Source: a virus
Lineage: Duplodnaviria; Caudoviricetes
Reading direction: 5' to 3' (one strand)
DNA length: 28,179 bases
Virus record (IMG/VR): IMGVR_UViG_3300032116_001049
Location: 1-28,179 of that record
The notes under the pieces were generated by a model. It was not told the DNA's origin. It ran no database searches and saw only the letters and a list, made by a program, of their open reading frames with translations. The translations under genes and the position numbers were made by a program. Position 1 is the first letter of the stretch. Every line of letters starts with the position of its first letter. Shown here piece by piece: positions 4,077 to 28,179 of this stretch.

Positions 4077-4805
4077 TTAACCAACATTCATCATCAGAGG
4101 GGTGGACATTGCCGCCGCTGGGGTCGCTACTTGTGCCACCGGTTGCGGCTTCATTAAAGATGACAAAAATGCCATGTTGCCGATGTTTCCAAAGGCTCCG
4201 CCGTACGCATTTGCCGCACCAACCTGTCCTGCCGCTTGAGCCGCAGCCTGTCCTGTAAGCAGACCAGTCTGTTGCGCCGCAAGGTTTTGCGCTGATTGAA
4301 CGCCGGTGTTGGTTGCGTTTTGACCCATTCCAGCAATGTTTCCAAGAATGTTGTAAATGTTGGTTCGTTCTTGTTGCGCTCGGTTGAAAGCGTTGGCGTA
4401 TTCGGTCGAGGCAAGGTCTTGACCAAATTCTGTCAATGACCGCAAGGTGTTTCCACTTAACAAACCGCCGCCAACATTTCGGGCTCTCTCTGTTGCTTGC
4501 GTTCCATACTTCATCCTAAATGCCATGCTTGGGTCGAGATATTGGGCGAGTTGTTCTTCGCCAAACTGACCAGTTAAATATGGCCGCATTGCTCCGATGT
4601 CTCGCAGAGCCGTGTAACCAGTCTCTCGATAAGGGGCAAGGTCTCCACGGGCAATGTCATACATCTCCCGCTCTTGCGCCATCGCTCGGTCAGCCGCTGC
4701 CGCCTGAGTTCGCGCCGCATCTTTTGCTGCTTTTGCCTGCATCCCAGCGCCAACAAGGCCAGCGCCTGCGCTTAGTGCTAAAGCGGTTCCGGTTGCAATA
4801 GCCAT
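4077..4805 (-). CDS. DNA transfer/ejection protein (P22 gp7-like)
   Basis: Hydrophobic Gly/Ala N-terminus, AAKDAARTQAAAA, DLAPYRETG, GGGLLSGNTLRSL..FGQDLASTEY; pattern typical of gp7-like pilot proteins. Confidence 0.75.
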   Translation of the reverse strand: MAIATGTALALSAGAGLVGAGMQAKAAKDAARTQAAAADRAMAQEREMYDIARGDLAPYRETGYTALRDIGAMRPYLTGQFGEEQLAQYLDPSMAFRMKYGTQATERARNVGGGLLSGNTLRSLTEFGQDLASTEYANAFNRAQQERTNIYNILGNIAGMGQNATNTGVQSAQNLAAQQTGLLTGQAAAQAAGQVGAANAYGGAFGNIGNMAFLSSLMKPQPVAQVATPAAAMSTPLMMNVG

Positions 4806-5290
4806 TATTCGATTCCCTTCATAAATGTCCGCTCCATCGGCTCAAATCCGGCGCGGAAATAGACTTTTTCCATCTTGTCTGCCCGCTCATCTTCTAGGGC
4901 AATCATAAACATGGTCTTTGCACCGCGTTCCTTTGCCCATAATTGTAAGTGTTTGAACATCTTATTCCCAGCCCCCGAGCCTCTTGCCGCGGGGGTTAGC
5001 CACCACCAAAGTTCTTGGGCGACCTTATGCGAGGGCGAGAAATATAGGGGATATGCAAGGCCACCAGTTATCCCGACAATCTCCCCGTTAACCTCGGCAA
5101 GCAGGGCGCACATATCGGGGTTTTGCATCGCACCACGCAAGAAGATTTCAAACCCTTTGGGCTCAAACTCGCAGACCTTTTGCATGGGCGAGGCTTTATG
5201 AAAGTCTGCGCTCAGTTGCAAATAAACCGGCACATCGGCCTCGGTGGCCTTTCGCACGGTTATCAGGTGCTGGGTGTCAGATAGGTTCAT
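4805..5290 (-). CDS. GNAT-family acetyltransferase (P22 gp14-like position)
   Basis: N-terminal VRKATEAD; acetyl-CoA motif A in WWLTPAARGSGAG; C-terminal YFRAGF. Confidence 0.85.
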   Translation of the reverse strand: MNLSDTQHLITVRKATEADVPVYLQLSADFHKASPMQKVCEFEPKGFEIFLRGAMQNPDMCALLAEVNGEIVGITGGLAYPLYFSPSHKVAQELWWWLTPAARGSGAGNKMFKHLQLWAKERGAKTMFMIALEDERADKMEKVYFRAGFEPMERTFMKGIE

Positions 5291-15827: not shown

Positions 15828-17075
15828 TTAGGCTGCAACGCGGCAGGCGAGTTCAGGGTAGAGGGGAGCCCAACCGTAGAGAACATCAAGACGGGTGGGG
15901 ATCGAGTCGTTGTTGATCGTGTATTGACGAACAACGCGGATCGAGAGGCCATTCTCTTTGTCGCTTGCGCGGCCAGCGAAATGGACACCGTCAGGCAGTT
16001 CAAGGTCAGCCGTGGCCAGGGTGAACGCATTGCGGTGGAACACCAAGTTCTGGGGCGACACGACACCGGTCTTGTTGAACGGGGTCACAACGGCAGAAGC
16101 AGAGGTGGAGAGCACCGACACATTCTGGAACTGTCCAGCAGTGATGATGGCCGGAGAAACCGTCACCGAGGCGGAGCCGCCAGAAGTGATGGTCACAGCG
16201 GAAGTCACCACAAAGTTACGCAGGACATTGCCACCATAAGGCTGGCGGTTCTGGGGGTTGACTGCGAACACACCCGCAATCTGGATCGTATCGCCAGCGT
16301 TCAGCACGGCGTTAGCGGTCGCAGCAGAGATGGTGATGGTCGAGGTCTGAGCCCAGCCCGTGGTCAGCGAACCGGTGAAGGTAGCCGTGTTGGTGGACAT
16401 CGTGGCCGTGGAATAGGAACCGTAGGTGTGGGACACAATGTTCTGGTCCATATACCAGTTCATGCCGATGGTGTCACGACCCATCAGGCCCTTCTCGTAC
16501 TGCTGAGAGATGGTGCCTTGGGGGTTGAAAAGACCCTTGAGCGAACCAACGATGGAAGCGCCCGTGAAGGGATCAACCACGCAAGAACGCTTGCCATCGC
16601 GGGGAGCGCCTTCGCCATCCAGATACGCTTGGGCGGTCAGGAAGGTTGCGATATCAGAGGGAACAACGCCAGCGGTTCCAACGGTGTTGGCGGTGTTGTC
16701 AACGGCCATGGTCGTGCCATCAAAGTCGATTTTGTTGGCAATAGCGGCAATGGCGGGCTTGAGAACGCGGTCGCTGAACATATCGAGCGACAGGGCCAAG
16801 TCCTGAGTCGTGAACTGAGTGTCCACATGGAACTGAGTCGAGAGGGTGACCGGAGTCGAGGTCTCGTTGAAGTCCTCAACATTCAGGGCAGGGCCAGTCG
16901 TTCCAATGAAACGGCCAGGGCGGCGGACATTGACTGTGTTACCAATCTTTGCACCGACAACCGCAAACTGGTCATCATAGTTACGGTCAACACGACCCGT
17001 AAAGGTCAGTTCGTTTTCCAAGACCATCAACGCTTCGTTGGTGATCATGGAGATGGTTAGCAAGTTATTTGCCAT
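15828..17075 (-). CDS. Major capsid (coat) protein, P22 gp5-like
   Basis: MANNLLTISMITNEALMVLENEL..GAKIGNTVNVRRP..NLVFHRNAFTLATADL..RLDVLYGW; GGAG Shine-Dalgarno. Confidence 0.93.
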   Translation of the reverse strand: MANNLLTISMITNEALMVLENELTFTGRVDRNYDDQFAVVGAKIGNTVNVRRPGRFIGTTGPALNVEDFNETSTPVTLSTQFHVDTQFTTQDLALSLDMFSDRVLKPAIAAIANKIDFDGTTMAVDNTANTVGTAGVVPSDIATFLTAQAYLDGEGAPRDGKRSCVVDPFTGASIVGSLKGLFNPQGTISQQYEKGLMGRDTIGMNWYMDQNIVSHTYGSYSTATMSTNTATFTGSLTTGWAQTSTITISAATANAVLNAGDTIQIAGVFAVNPQNRQPYGGNVLRNFVVTSAVTITSGGSASVTVSPAIITAGQFQNVSVLSTSASAVVTPFNKTGVVSPQNLVFHRNAFTLATADLELPDGVHFAGRASDKENGLSIRVVRQYTINNDSIPTRLDVLYGWAPLYPELACRVAA

Positions 17076-22009: not shown

Positions 22010-23755
22010 TCAGTTTCGATAGACGAACAATTCCATTGGATCGACATCAAGCCCATAAGGGTTGAATGTCTCTCTATTAAATCCGGCGTTCTCTATTCGT
22101 TGCGCAAAGGGAAAGTTTGCGGCTCTTTCGGCTGGGGTAAGGTTCATCCGCGTCTGAGCCAATCTCGCAATCGCTTCACCTTCTAGCCTTCTATAAAGTT
22201 CGTAATTTTCTAGGTTCTTTTGGAGTTCATTCAGTTTGTTGTATTTGGTTGCCGTGGCGCGATACTCGTTGGCTCTATCTGCGAGTCTCGATACTTTCCG
22301 GTTCGCGGACGCGCCCATCTTTTTGGCTTCTTCGGGTGAATAGTCCTGTTGCGCAACACGATAGGATGGGTCTTTTTCCTGCACTTTGTTCTTGATAAAC
22401 GCTGCCGCACCCCTGAACCACTCATCGCGCTCTGGGCCAGCCCGTTTTGGTTGAGGGCCAGCAATCCCTCGGTATTCGTGACCGTAGGCATACCAGTCTT
22501 GCATATTGTAAATAGAACGAGGCCGGATGCCCTCGCCTCGCGCAATCGCGTCCAATTTGTGCATATATTGGGCTTTTGAGGCAAGACCAAGGTCTCCAAG
22601 GCTTCGTTTGAAGTCTTCGTAAGCGCCTTTATTGGCTTTGAGGATCGGATCGTTTCTTTCCGCAAAATACAGTTGTTTTGCTGCGTCTTCAGGGTTTCCA
22701 CCCCGACCATGTCCTTCAAGACTTTGAACTGCGTGTTGAAGTTCATGGATCATGGTTGATTTGGCGGCTTCGTTTACATCATCGCCCCCAATCATATTTC
22801 CACCGCCAGTCGTGACCAATTGACGGTTTTGACTATATGTCCCCCGATGGCGAGCGCCGGTCGGTTCCCTGGCAATGTCCAAACTTCCCATCAATCCAGG
22901 CGACCCCGTAACACCAGGGTAGGCTTCCCGCAATGCCTGATGCTGAAAATACCGCTCAAGAGGTCTTGGCTCTAGATGCCCACCGCTTGCAATGATGTCA
23001 TCCGCAAATGCGAGGGCTTTGTCTTGCGCTTCTTGAGGAACCAAGTCGCTACTTGATCCAACCCCCCAAACGCCCTTTTTTTCGTCTGGAATGTAGTTGT
23101 TGCGTTGCAACCACGCATTCGCAATGTCGAACCTTTCCCGAGCAGGCGGTAGACCTTCAAAATCCAGTCTAGCCATGTCATCTGGTATTTCAGTAACCCA
23201 TTCCCGACCGGCTGGCAACCGAGCCAATTGCGTTTCCCGCCAAATTCTCTCTGGGCCAGCGCCCCTTTTTTCTAATTCCTCGGCAGCCGCCACTTGTTCG
23301 GGTTTAATTTTGGTCGATTTCTGACCGACAAAAATGCGGCTCAACGGAACCATTGACCCCGCTTCGTCCAAAACCCCCATAGAGGTTGCCTTGGGGTTGC
23401 CGGTAATAAATTGCACCATCGCATCGCCAGCCTCGTCCGCAACCACTTTTGCGCCTCGTAAGGCTGGCCGCACACCCGTTGCCATCAACGCCACATCCGC
23501 AATGTCGGTCAGTTCACCTTCCCTGCCGGTTTTAACGATAGGCAGGCGGCGGTTCGTCACCCCTGTTGGCATTGCCAAAGGCGAGTTGCCATAAGCGAGG
23601 TTTTCAAAGGTTGATGCTTTGGGCATCAGAACTTTGAATGGGTTTACATCGGTAAAAGGGATGATTTGGCCCATCGGGCCTTGGAGGTCAGCAAGAACCT
23701 CCGCAATTCGCTTGAGTCGCGGGTTAACAACCGGACTGGCCCGCATCTCGGCCAT
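22010..23755 (-). CDS. LPD23-like domain/HExxH metallopeptidase-like protein (polyvalent-protein type)
   Basis: IWRETQLARLPAGREWVTEIPDD; STMIHELQHAVQSLEGHGRGG; YRRLEGEAIARLAQTRMNLTPAER. Confidence 0.7.
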   Translation of the reverse strand: MAEMRASPVVNPRLKRIAEVLADLQGPMGQIIPFTDVNPFKVLMPKASTFENLAYGNSPLAMPTGVTNRRLPIVKTGREGELTDIADVALMATGVRPALRGAKVVADEAGDAMVQFITGNPKATSMGVLDEAGSMVPLSRIFVGQKSTKIKPEQVAAAEELEKRGAGPERIWRETQLARLPAGREWVTEIPDDMARLDFEGLPPARERFDIANAWLQRNNYIPDEKKGVWGVGSSSDLVPQEAQDKALAFADDIIASGGHLEPRPLERYFQHQALREAYPGVTGSPGLMGSLDIAREPTGARHRGTYSQNRQLVTTGGGNMIGGDDVNEAAKSTMIHELQHAVQSLEGHGRGGNPEDAAKQLYFAERNDPILKANKGAYEDFKRSLGDLGLASKAQYMHKLDAIARGEGIRPRSIYNMQDWYAYGHEYRGIAGPQPKRAGPERDEWFRGAAAFIKNKVQEKDPSYRVAQQDYSPEEAKKMGASANRKVSRLADRANEYRATATKYNKLNELQKNLENYELYRRLEGEAIARLAQTRMNLTPAERAANFPFAQRIENAGFNRETFNPYGLDVDPMELFVYRN

Positions 23756-24293: not shown

Positions 24294-24578
24294 TTAACAG
24301 TTCCAGTTTTTAAGAGATGCTGCCTTCCGAGTCGGTCTTCCCTTCTCGTCCTTCATCGGCCCTGGCATCCCGCTCATCCGCGCACAGAATGAGGCTTTGC
24401 GGCCCGCATCTGCCTTGGTCTTGGGGTTTGGTGCAGGGGGTTTGAGGTTTGCATTGTTCTTTGCGTTGTATTCCGCCCGCCCCTTGGCGGTCATTCCCGC
24501 ACCCTTTTCGGTGGGGTTGTAGTTCTTGCCCTTGCCGGTCGTGGTCTTCGCAATGGGCTTGTTAGTGGTTTTTGCCAT
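24294..24578 (-). CDS. Basic hypothetical phage protein
   Basis: Start reassigned to ATG 24578 (GAGG upstream). GMTAKGR..NLKPP..RKASFCARM..SLKNWNC. Confidence 0.75.
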   Translation of the reverse strand: MAKTTNKPIAKTTTGKGKNYNPTEKGAGMTAKGRAEYNAKNNANLKPPAPNPKTKADAGRKASFCARMSGMPGPMKDEKGRPTRKAASLKNWNC

Positions 24579-24867
24579 TTGAATCCTCGATGAAGCAGAC
24601 ATCCTTCCACGACATCACGATGAGTTCTTCGCCGTCCACTTCCATTCTTGGATAGGAGAGATATTCCTCCGCAGTCCCAAATCTGATCCGTTGACCAATT
24701 TCCATCGGATTTGGAATCAGGCGACCTTTCTTGTCAATCTCGCCTGGGCCGACCGCCAGCACCTCGCCGGTGTTGGGCAGTTCATCCATCACTACATGGA
24801 GAACATTGCTCTTGACCCGCTCAATGGGTCTGACAACGATTCGGTCACGCAGAGGTCGCAGAGTCAT
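24562..24867 (-). CDS. groES: Co-chaperonin GroES/Cpn10-like
   Basis: LRPLRDRIVVRP..GEVLAVGPG..GQRIRFG..EVDGEELIVM. Confidence 0.88.
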   Translation of the reverse strand: MTLRPLRDRIVVRPIERVKSNVLHVVMDELPNTGEVLAVGPGEIDKKGRLIPNPMEIGQRIRFGTAEEYLSYPRMEVDGEELIVMSWKDVCFIEDSNGKNH

Positions 24868-25910: not shown

Positions 25911-26279
25911 TCAAGTCACCGCCCCCCTGCTGATTTTTACCATGCCGCCAACCCGATCAGCCTTCCGAATGGTAAGGGTGAACCGCTTGTCGTTGACCCC
26001 CCAGCCGTCCGCAAGACCATCCAGCCCCGCCTTTATCGCCGCGAGGCAGTTATCGAGGTCGTGCGCCCTCCGGTTGGGTGGGATGAACTCAATGTCCAAG
26101 TGGATCGCGCCATCGGCAGGAAACTCCCATTTGGATTGTTTGGCAAGCATATAAGCCGCAAGCCGGTATTTCTTCTTAGCGTTGGCCACCGCCCCCCAAT
26201 GCTCCCTTGCGTTTGGGGAGAGGGTTCGAGGGGGCCACGGGAGAATCACCTTATCGGGTGAGTTTTTCGATTGTGTCAT
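25911..26279 (-). CDS. rusA: RusA-like Holliday junction resolvase
   Basis: LPWPP..SPN; PPNRRAHDLDNCLAAIKAGLDGLAD..VNDKRF. Start may be GTG 26249. Confidence 0.85.
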   Translation of the reverse strand: MTQSKNSPDKVILPWPPRTLSPNAREHWGAVANAKKKYRLAAYMLAKQSKWEFPADGAIHLDIEFIPPNRRAHDLDNCLAAIKAGLDGLADGWGVNDKRFTLTIRKADRVGGMVKISRGAVT

Positions 26280-26508
26280 TCAAGACGCTCAGTTCTGTTT
26301 TTTTGGTGACATTCCAAATAGCCCTGCGGCCATGGATTCCGTTGTGACTGCCTTGGTGACAATCCTTGCAGAGGGGGATGCAAGTGAACTGGAGCCCCTG
26401 CTCGATATGGTGGGCATCCGAGGGTCCAGCCGCGCCGCAGACCCCGCAGGGCATCTCTTTGACCGCCAGCAGATGCCGCCGCTCTCTTGCGTTGAGCCGG
26501 TTATTCAT
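26251..26508 (-). CDS. Ref-like HNH/zinc-finger nuclease
   Basis: Start reassigned to ATG 26508. PCGVCG..DAHHI..CIPLCKDCHQG..GIHG. Confidence 0.7.
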   Translation of the reverse strand: MNNRLNARERRHLLAVKEMPCGVCGAAGPSDAHHIEQGLQFTCIPLCKDCHQGSHNGIHGRRAIWNVTKKTELSVLNDTIEKLTR

Positions 26509-26725
26509 AGTTCTTTTTGATCCTCTGCTTCTTTTTGCAAACCTTATCGCAGCCGCAATGCGGCTCCCGCGTGTAATCCTCCACCAGACCGAATTGCCGC
26601 TCAACCTCCGCAGCCAAGTCTTTGCGCATGATTTTGCAAGGCTGGCGCATGACAATCCTTTGCCTGCAATCCGCGCAATGAAGGTCAAAGATTCCGCAAT
26701 CATCTTTGCAATAGTCACAATCCAC
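26501..26725 (-). CDS. Cys-rich hypothetical protein
   Basis: 74 aa with CDYC, CADC and CGCDKVC; GTG start abuts the TAG of the 26726 ORF. Confidence 0.6.
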   Translation of the reverse strand: MDCDYCKDDCGIFDLHCADCRQRIVMRQPCKIMRKDLAAEVERQFGLVEDYTREPHCGCDKVCKKKQRIKKNYE

Positions 26726-27548
26726 CTAAAACTTCCCATGCTCGTCTAGCCACTTCTGGAACTTGTCCATTTCCAATGGCTTCAAGTCTGTCCAACCGAG
26801 AGGCCACCCCATCAGCCACTCGACCCACATCGGGTTCAACTTCCCACCATTTCCCGCCCCCATCTGCCTGGCTTCTTCGATAGTCGTGTTTTTCTTGAGC
26901 AATTCCCAACTTCCCGTTCCCCCGCACATTCCTTTCGTCCTGGGCGTGGGCCAATTCACTTGAGCCGTCAATGTTGGGGTGTTTCTCATATGTTCGCTTG
27001 GTGCGTTGGTCTCTTTGCTCATGTGTGCTGTTGGCGTTGTCCAGCGGAGGGGGGGGGGGAGAAGTTTGCTTTAATCCAAATTCTGTCTCGCTGGTGCGGA
27101 GCCCCGACATCTGCTGCTCCCAGCACTCCCCATTTCGCATCAAACCCCATCGAGGCCAAGTCTCCGAGAACGGTTCCAAGTCCCCTAGAAGTGAGCATTG
27201 GTGAGTTCTCCACAAGGACGAATCGGGGTCGTACTTCGTGAATGATCCTTGCCATTTCTCGCCACATTCCTGACCGTTCTCCGTCAATTCCTGCTCCCTT
27301 TCCTGCTGCGGAGATGTCTTGGCATGGAAACCCGCCAGATACGACATCAACAATTCCTCGCCACGGCCTTCCGTCAAAGGTTTGAACATCATCCCAAATC
27401 GGGAAAGGGGGGAGAAATCCGTCATTTTGTCGGGCGCACAATACGCTTGCTGGGTAGGGTTCCCACTCAACTGCACAGACTGTTCTCCATCCAAGGAGAT
27501 GTCCCCCAAGTATTCCTCCACCAGCGCCTGCGAAAAGAGCCAACTCAT
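26715..27548 (-). CDS. 277-aa chimeric frame: methyltransferase beta-chain N-terminal half joined to alpha-chain C-terminus (motif X)
   Basis: Open across the whole locus in the +1 frame relative to alpha; ends RLEAIGNGQVPEVARRAW (C5-MTase motif X). Confidence 0.6.
   Translation of the reverse strand: MSWLFSQALVEEYLGDISLDGEQSVQLSGNPTQQAYCAPDKMTDFSPLSRFGMMFKPLTEGRGEELLMSYLAGFHAKTSPQQEREQELTENGQECGEKWQGSFTKYDPDSSLWRTHQCSLLGDLEPFSETWPRWGLMRNGECWEQQMSGLRTSETEFGLKQTSPPPPPLDNANSTHEQRDQRTKRTYEKHPNIDGSSELAHAQDERNVRGNGKLGIAQEKHDYRRSQADGGGKWWEVEPDVGRVADGVASRLDRLEAIGNGQVPEVARRAWEVLGGL
26726..27022 (-). CDS. Methyltransferase beta-chain C-terminal part (TRD-like region plus motif IX)
   Basis: TPTLTAQVNWPTP..GKLNPMWVEWLMGWPLGWTD matches motif IX (consensus like LTP.E..RLMGFP..W); the frame is open upstream to the C tract (LRWTTPTAH). 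Confidence 0.7.
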   Translation of the reverse strand: MSKETNAPSEHMRNTPTLTAQVNWPTPRTKGMCGGTGSWELLKKNTTIEEARQMGAGNGGKLNPMWVEWLMGWPLGWTDLKPLEMDKFQKWLDEHGKF

Positions 27549-27552
27549 TCAT
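27019..27552 (-). CDS. DNA (cytosine-5) methyltransferase alpha chain, motifs I-VIII, truncated after the C11 tract
   Basis: LFAGAGG (I), GGFPCQDIS (IV), LVENSP (VI), PHQRDRIW (VIII); stops 10 codons after the tract. Confidence 0.9.
   Translation of the reverse strand: MNELALFAGAGGGILGGHLLGWRTVCAVEWEPYPASVLCARQNDGFLPPFPIWDDVQTFDGRPWRGIVDVVSGGFPCQDISAAGKGAGIDGERSGMWREMARIIHEVRPRFVLVENSPMLTSRGLGTVLGDLASMGFDAKWGVLGAADVGAPHQRDRIWIKANFSPPPSAGQRQQHT
27049..27059. repeat. G11/C11 homopolymer tract at the frameshift point
   Basis: Eleven consecutive G on the plus strand; the longest homopolymer I noticed in the window. Confidence 0.95.
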
Positions 27553-27929
27553 GCAGCCCTCATCGCGGCTCTCATCACCGCCGCCTTAAAGTCTTGCGGG
27601 TGGATAAATTGGGACTCCAGAATGCCGAGTTCTTTGCCCTTGGCAACAATCCCTGGCCATGTCTCATGCCATTCCTTGCCGTCAACAACCCCAGGCAGGG
27701 TCACTTTTAGTTCATCGTCCCACCGCTCCCCGCGCAACCAAGTCGCAGGATAGGGGATGAATTGCCCATCGTTCTTTCGCCATTGGTCGCTTTTTGCCTG
27801 GGCTTCGATTGACGCAAGGAGGTCAGGCAGAGCCGGTCGGATGTTCTGGGTCTGCGTCCATGCCTTTCTTGCATCGCCCTTGGCGACCCGCTTTGGGTAG
27901 GCTTTCCAGAAGGTGTCAAAGTCGGTCAT
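27549..27929 (-). CDS. Phage replication-initiator-like C-terminal domain protein
   Basis: Start reassigned to ATG 27929 (ATGA overlap). FDTFWKAYPKRVAKGDARKAW..QFIPYPATWLRGERWDDE. Confidence 0.75.
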   Translation of the reverse strand: MTDFDTFWKAYPKRVAKGDARKAWTQTQNIRPALPDLLASIEAQAKSDQWRKNDGQFIPYPATWLRGERWDDELKVTLPGVVDGKEWHETWPGIVAKGKELGILESQFIHPQDFKAAVMRAAMRAA

Positions 27930-28179
27930 GCGTTCTTTTCTTTCAGTTTGGCTTCGATGGCGCGGGAAAACGCTGAATATTGCAATGGATCGTAATGAGT
28001 AAAAATTTCCCAAGTTTCATCGCTGGTCAGCCCAACCCATTCACGCTTATGACCCCATACCCCAACCTCGCCAACCTTGGCTAAATCCGGCTGTGCTAGG
28101 GCTTGGTGTAACGCTTCTTTCGCATCATCCACTTGCCCCCATGCCAGAGCCTCTAACGCCATCTCTGCTGCTTTGCGTA
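27926..28179 (-). CDS. Hypothetical phage protein (probably 5'-truncated by the window edge)
   Basis: RKAAEMALEAL..KREWVGLTSDE..FSRAIEAKLKEKNA; frame is open to the window edge. Confidence 0.7.
   Translation of the reverse strand, partial: RKAAEMALEALAWGQVDDAKEALHQALAQPDLAKVGEVGVWGHKREWVGLTSDETWEIFTHYDPLQYSAFSRAIEAKLKEKNA

Follow-up and report, generated by a model that had tools for sequence, protein, structure and literature searches.

A length-variable poly-C tract that probably switches both frames of a two-frame phage cytosine methylase

Analysis of a 28,179-base stretch of DNA (the window), part of the genome of a tailed phage whose portal and coat genes are of P22 type, identified a cytosine methylase that is encoded in two overlapping frames (alpha and beta) and is probably phase variable. 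A length-variable run of C within the gene is likely to act as a heritable on/off switch, setting the register of both methylase frames through slipped-strand mispairing. Slipped-strand mispairing at simple repeats drives ON/OFF methyltransferases in bacteria (phasevarions). The coat proteins nearest to that of the window were from uncultured spring-water phages (83% and 77%).

The tract, G11 on the plus strand and C11 on the minus (coding) strand (Table 1), was the sole run longer than 7 bases in the window; the next longest were three T7 runs, and all remaining G or C runs were 6 bases or shorter. It lies directly after the RDRIW motif of alpha. The beta ATG (MSWLF..., +1 frame) is 4 nt downstream of the alpha ATG, and beta overlaps alpha entirely. 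As in a contingency locus, the repeat lies within an open reading frame (ORF) and its length sets the frame. At C11, alpha had 177 aa, ending ...ANFSPPPSAGQRQQHT before a stop codon, and the beta-frame ORF read into the C-terminus of alpha, giving 277 aa with the GNGQV segment at the end. The tail of beta was then reachable only through an ATG at 27022, which overlaps the stop codon of alpha and opens a 98-aa ORF (26726-27022). Both frames were in register at C10 (alpha, 278 aa; beta, 273 aa) and at C13 (279 and 274 aa), and at C9 or C12 the front of alpha was joined to the tail of beta. These translations bore out a first-pass annotation of the sequence, which had proposed that the one C11 tract shifts both overlapping frames, truncating alpha and running the front of beta into the C-terminus of alpha, and that C10 or C13 repairs both proteins. 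Set to C10, the gene in the window was complete in both frames, with no further stops or frameshifts. The tract in the window is one base longer than the in-register length, and this genome is likely to be in the off state. The frame crossover at the tract was confirmed independently by PHROG profiles, the halves of which were split over ORFs: the front of the 277-aa ORF matched phrog_1008 and its tail matched phrog_363, with the other halves of these profiles on the 177-aa and 98-aa ORFs.

Table 1. Coordinates in the window of the methylase gene, its parts, and its neighbors
Feature	Position	Strand	Match or remark
C11 tract (G11 on +), the probable switch	27049..27059	-	C11 in X1 and X2; one base shorter in X5 and X9
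Alpha catalytic front, 177 aa at C11	27019..27552	-	PF00145, E 6e-31, profile positions 4-159; phrog_363, 54-218
Alpha motif LFAGAGG	27537-27517	-	
Alpha motif GGFPCQ	27336-27319	-	
Alpha motif ENSP	27210-27199	-	
Alpha motif QRDRIW	27093-27076	-	
277-aa chimeric ORF at C11, beta front plus alpha tail	26715..27548	-	phrog_1008, 35-153 (front); phrog_363, 236-311 (tail)
IGNGQV, putative motif X, in alpha tail	26777-26760	-	
Beta tail	26726..27043	-	phrog_1008, 256-281; alignment
Two W[PT]TP-headed variable modules in beta tail	from 27043 and 26953	-	Putative target-recognition part
LNPMWVEWLMGWP, putative motif IX, in beta tail	26839-26801	-	
Second probable switch position of the family, here G-K-G	27295..27303	-	No tract
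Replication-initiator-like gene, upstream	27549..28013	-	phrog_270, E 1e-22
74-aa ORF, HNH-like small ORF, and RusA-like resolvase, downstream	25911..26725	-	phrog_34, E 1e-21; weak HNH PHROG hits

Alpha scored 108.5 bits against PF00145 (cut-off, 22), as expected of the front of a C5 cytosine DNA methyltransferase, and matched M.HhaI by profile (E 4.5e-19); its score against TIGR00675 was below the whole-protein cut-off. The predicted structure of a natural in-register alpha (L064) matched HhaI and HaeIII (E 1e-11, 167 columns). The catalytic front combined FxGxGG, PCQ, ENx, and RxR motifs with this HhaI-like predicted fold, and the four corresponding sequences LFAGAGG, GGFPCQ, ENSP, and QRDRIW are those that we take to be motifs I, IV, VI, and VIII. 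Among the tail segments, the conserved NPxWxEWLMGWP and GNGQV segments matched PHROG methyltransferase families, and HMM searches against Pfam, NCBIfam, and solved structures gave no confirmation of motifs IX and X; the names TRD (target-recognition domain), motif IX, and motif X for conserved tail segments are presumptive. Residues 191 to 259 of the L064 alpha model had a pLDDT of <50 (predicted disordered), with a confident terminal helix, and the model of beta alone was of low confidence (mean pLDDT, 51) and was not taken as evidence. The repeated modules in beta, together with the pLDDT of <50 across alpha 191 to 259, point to a target-recognition part in beta rather than in alpha. The variable part of beta consisted of shuffled modules, each starting with W[PT]TP (26840-27043 in the window, and the alignment); relatives with a common module 1 differed in module 2, and between one and three module copies were present.

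The stop codon of the upstream replication-initiator-like gene overlaps the ATG of alpha (ATGA), and a promoter/terminator scan gave signal at chance level. Elsewhere in the window, a phage-borne GroES/Cpn10-like gene was found at 24562-24867 (PF00166, E 5e-9), a 581-aa ORF with a weak LPD23 match preceded the terminase (22010-23755), and a GNAT acetyltransferase was encoded in the tail-gene region (4805-5290). Antisense to the coat gene, an open frame of 378 codons (15924-17060, plus strand) is probably a shadow frame.

The two-frame layout was common among relatives. Both frames were intact in 67 of 80 viral loci (the best 80 of 578 relatives) and in 53 of 80 loci from genomes, with most of the remaining loci cut by contig ends or missed by the motif patterns, and both were open in all 7 GenBank phage records checked (L390-L396), each of which had one frame annotated. 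In register is thus the normal state of the family. The second chain, with putative motif IX, lay in the alternative frame, the layout of a two-frame heterodimer. Alpha was the frame annotated in five of the GenBank records, and only beta was annotated, as hypothetical, in Pseudomonas phage phPA-G and Ralstonia phage Gerry. All seven records were tract-less, and no cultured phage carrying the tract was found; cultured phages with a tract-less two-frame gene are ready material for study of the heterodimer. In L034, L049, L050, L114, L325, and L332, putative motifs IX and X were both in the beta frame, with an HNH-like ORF in the third frame between them in L049 and L050.

Pattern scans of 64, 29, and 79 loci produced 124 matching records including the window, of which 82 were recognized as methylase, 78 had at least 150 nt of sequence on both sides, and collapsing identical records left 50 distinct haplotypes. 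The 42 records not recognized as methylase were chance matches and contig-end copies (L097/L153/L251, L100/L155, and L166), and 4 further records had flanks of <150 nt. Some tract copies were missed by the pattern (L118/L123, C9 and in register; L141, interrupted run and out of register). The 50 haplotypes had tracts of C8 to C16 at the same junction and covered all three registers: 26 were in register, 13 were at +1, as is the window, and 11 were at -1. Varying lengths at this site are what the first-pass annotation had suggested looking for. Length varied among otherwise near-identical genomes, as expected of a contingency locus: L156 (C12) and L164 (C13) had 0 mismatches over 1280 flanking nt, as did L162 (C12) and L172 (C11), and L241 (C13) and L244 (C12) had 1 mismatch over the same length. 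With identical records counted once, more than one length was present in each of the 12 multi-member same-flank families. Four of the 12 held two in-register lengths three bases apart, which are not the product of one-base errors from a single true length and which imply passage through off states (at no given rate). At least five different first modules followed the C run.

Frameshifts were found in 24 of 50 haplotypes with the tract and in 1 of 126 without it (0 of 125 classified plus one unclassified that looks shifted; Fisher test, P = 1e-14, with the haplotypes related, falling into 29 same-flank families). When the run was given an in-register length, 19 of 20 out-of-register haplotypes were complete, and decay of a pseudogene was rejected on this result and on the completeness of the window gene at C10; the combination of tract-less relatives and a decaying copy, named beforehand as evidence against switching, was not what was found, as relatives held the tract. 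In 158 related loci, G/C runs of at least 9 numbered 11 per 140 kb of methylase gene (2 of the 11 in one garbled contig end, L028) and 1 per 406 kb of flanks. Candidate phase-variable phage methylation, as the window had first been read, was largely supported by the C8 to C16 lengths, the near-identical pairs, and the intact off copies. Independent origins of the C tract were considered, with 12 to 14 label changes on the tree; this claim was dropped because a single clade was not rejected (AU test run without L028, P = 0.050) and the genes likely recombine. Interrupted or shortened runs were seen at the junctions of L141 (C6-T-C7, out of register) and L146 and would be expected to stabilize a state.

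All 24 public sequencing runs listed were contigs, which drop minority variants, and contigs spanned the tract in 4 of the 8 runs compared. X1 and X2, possibly from one campaign and with X1 possibly not independent of the window, each had one 324-nt contig over 26822-27145 with C11 and zero differences (depths, 40.8 and 13.1). The contig in X5 (26820-27172; depth, 5.5) had 0 mismatches and one G fewer, which is in frame, and that in X9 (26924-27133, 209 nt; depth, 9.9) was shorter by one G and had a single substitution at the run edge, which would be expected to stabilize a state. X5 and X9 differed from X1 and X2 in year and habitat label. Among the pieces listed for X3 and X4 no contig spanned the tract, X11 had no cover at the tract, and the contig in X10 ended at 27048. 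The assemblies L109/L158 and L188 were 100% identical to the window over 1.6 to 1.8 kb, with C11 (L221 was likewise identical and was left out of the count). One allele is seen in both states, in contigs of different samples. The tract was not uniformly C10, and an assembly or sequencing error, raised at the outset as an alternative, is unlikely given unchanged C11 in X1 and X2 and the in-frame form of the allele, shorter by one base, in X5 and X9.

Other family members carried G9 to G15 near alpha nucleotide 245 (57 loci, 48 haplotypes), with 32 haplotypes in register and 16 out of register and some pairs identical over 1600 nt. Among the 54 G-tract loci whose start could be read (two of which end before the junction), no C run of at least 8 was found, and no G run was found in the 28 C-tract haplotypes readable at the G site. 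That C and G tracts were never in the same locus read is suggestive of one switch per gene. L264, a 33-kb contig in a Burkholderiaceae MAG bin (a possible host hint), had G11 in place of the C run at the junction (alpha nucleotide ~495) and was out of register.

A miscount of the run in short-read consensus, with the true genes all in register, is very improbable as an account of the off copies. Short reads struggle at the run, and single low-depth contigs may be wrong: only contigs were seen, breaks and garbled ends occurred at the run (L028, L100, and L143), and contigs of 10 of 64 relatives ended within 100 nt upstream of the module and 1 downstream, some of them garbled. The C tract was present in about 5 of 80 unselected viral relatives; all 4 that could be read were in register. 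However, C11 was unchanged in two runs (depths, 41 and 13) and in L109/L158 and L188, genes were out of register even at short runs (3 of 5 at C8-C9), out-of-register states recurred in separate records with +1 and -1 about equally common, and in-register lengths differed by three inside same-flank families. It is also unlikely that the tract is an unselected weak spot, where slippage of the run knocks out a gene that the phage can do without and switching brings no gain. A Pro run in both frames of doubly coding DNA can be written only as poly-C, and synonymous changes cannot break such a run; the tract is a minority trait for which a single origin was not rejected; and the gene can be lost, as premature stops were found in 6 of 125 tract-less copies. 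Against this, the Pro run is itself dispensable (PPP at that point in 4 of 80 alphas), and the G site reads AGKG without a run in 65 of 76 cases. Moreover, second lesions were absent from 19 of 20 off copies, the in-register share (26 of 50) exceeded one third (binomial test, P = 0.007, on nonindependent haplotypes), and only 1 such run was found in the 406 kb of flanks.

There is a slim chance that the tract works as a dial with three settings for the architecture of the enzyme, and not simply as an off switch. Each length deals half-genes differently because both frames move together; under this reading, to which we give little weight, the same four half-genes would be dealt into different chains by length, and the -1 and +1 products could complement each other. 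The family would also, improbably, have come to this kind of dial at two sites, using C as well as G runs. Three-state rewiring, in which the pieces at +1 or -1 would assemble by themselves or by mutual complementation within a cell, is highly doubtful. The +1 state of the window keeps all motifs, in the catalytic front, the front of beta with motif X, and a restarted piece with the modules and motif IX, and the -1 state puts the front, modules, and motif IX in one chain; in L034, L049, and L050 the beta frame naturally holds IX together with X. There is precedent for IX-X as a separate chain and for complementation between fragments (PMC3404938), and partial activity from internal Met codons of M.EcoHK31I beta is described in the accessible part of PMC2836561. 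In the same part of PMC2836561, however, N-terminal deletions of at least 42 residues abolished M.EcoHK31I activity in vitro. The ATG of the 98-aa ORF overlaps the stop codon of alpha, but the code itself gives rise to such an overlap (xTG + A), and the restart was not conserved across module types: several had no start at that point, and in the commonest type the stop fell 51 to 55 codons past the RIW tryptophan, inside putative motif IX.

For the preferred reading, a heritable on/off switch, the in-register gene gives an alpha with the catalytic front and GNGQV tail and a beta with the variable modules and EWLMGW motif, and other tract lengths join the wrong halves; near-identical natural genes appear in all three registers. 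Length changes would arise by slipped-strand mispairing. By analogy with M.EcoHK31I, alpha and beta would form one enzyme, and out-of-register genomes would presumably make no working enzyme. The phage lineage would then be a mix of methylating genomes, shielded from restriction enzymes that are blocked by methylation, and nonmethylating genomes, invisible to 5mC-dependent (Type IV) enzymes. Because the enzyme would act in trans, a new length variant should keep the methylation of its parent for one round and take its own state at the next infection. The off state may leak, since no motif is lost from the window: all are found in three ORFs, every one of which has a start codon. By analogy, the switch is likely to serve as a hedge between Type II and Type IV restriction, for which the trade-off measured for T2 agt is a precedent (PMC12633550).

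The first proposal of contingency loci in phages came in a 2025 preprint, which deals mostly with laboratory coliphages and rare variants (PMC12633550). The present data describe a large environmental phage methylase family with long G/C tracts at fixed sites, in which a third to half of the tract-bearing consensus sequences were out of register, and a poly-C site, new here, with one allele in both states. A single base would control two overlapping genes at once, and bet-hedging between methylation-blocked and methylation-dependent restriction becomes directly testable. As a warning for annotation, such copies would be taken for pseudogenes or sequencing errors.

T2 agt and T4 rIIA are phage contingency loci (Gomez, Barrick and Waters, bioRxiv 2025, PMC12633550). 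According to the available text of that preprint, homopolymers in T2 agt, a phage DNA-modification gene like the one described here, undergo reversible frameshifts, the agt states trade sensitivity between two Type IV systems, and reversion and fitness were measured. T2 agt and T4 rIIA each have a single frame and an A run, and the reads put their mutant frequencies at about 1e-4 to 1e-3, according to the same text; here, in contrast to T2 agt, the run is C8 to C16, two overlapping frames move together, the gene codes for a C5 methyltransferase, and roughly half of the environmental consensus sequences with a tract were out of register. A poly-G tract in the methylase gene of Bordetella phage BPP-1 (Liu et al. 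2004) is mentioned in the same preprint as not studied further; it shares with the present gene a homopolymer in a phage methylase, and no two-frame layout is mentioned there (available part of PMC12633550).

M.EcoHK31I (Lee, Kam and Shaw 1995) is a two-polypeptide C5 methyltransferase in which, as here, alpha has the catalytic motifs and motif X and the chain with motif IX is in another frame (available parts of PMC2836561 and PMC3404938). In those sources the target-recognition domain is assigned to alpha and no repeat switch is described, whereas here the variable W[PT]TP modules are in beta (PMC2836561, PMC3404938). Beta here also differs in starting 4 nt after alpha and overlapping all of it, and no cognate endonuclease was seen. 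The available portions of papers on Paracoccus and Sinorhizobium prophages (PMC5537653, PMC3925955, and PMC6536676) do not describe the two-frame enzyme. A search of mostly open-access literature gave no description of a two-frame phage C5 methylase with both of its frames switched by one repeat.

In Type III mod phasevarions, slippage at simple repeats turns a bacterial methyltransferase on and off, and a Type IIG methyltransferase of C. jejuni is reportedly phase variable as well (PMC4889913). These bacterial methyltransferases are chromosomal, single-frame, and mostly adenine-specific, and they affect host gene expression, whereas the enzyme described here is an orphan cytosine enzyme of a phage. 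The trait common to both would be switching by repeat length.
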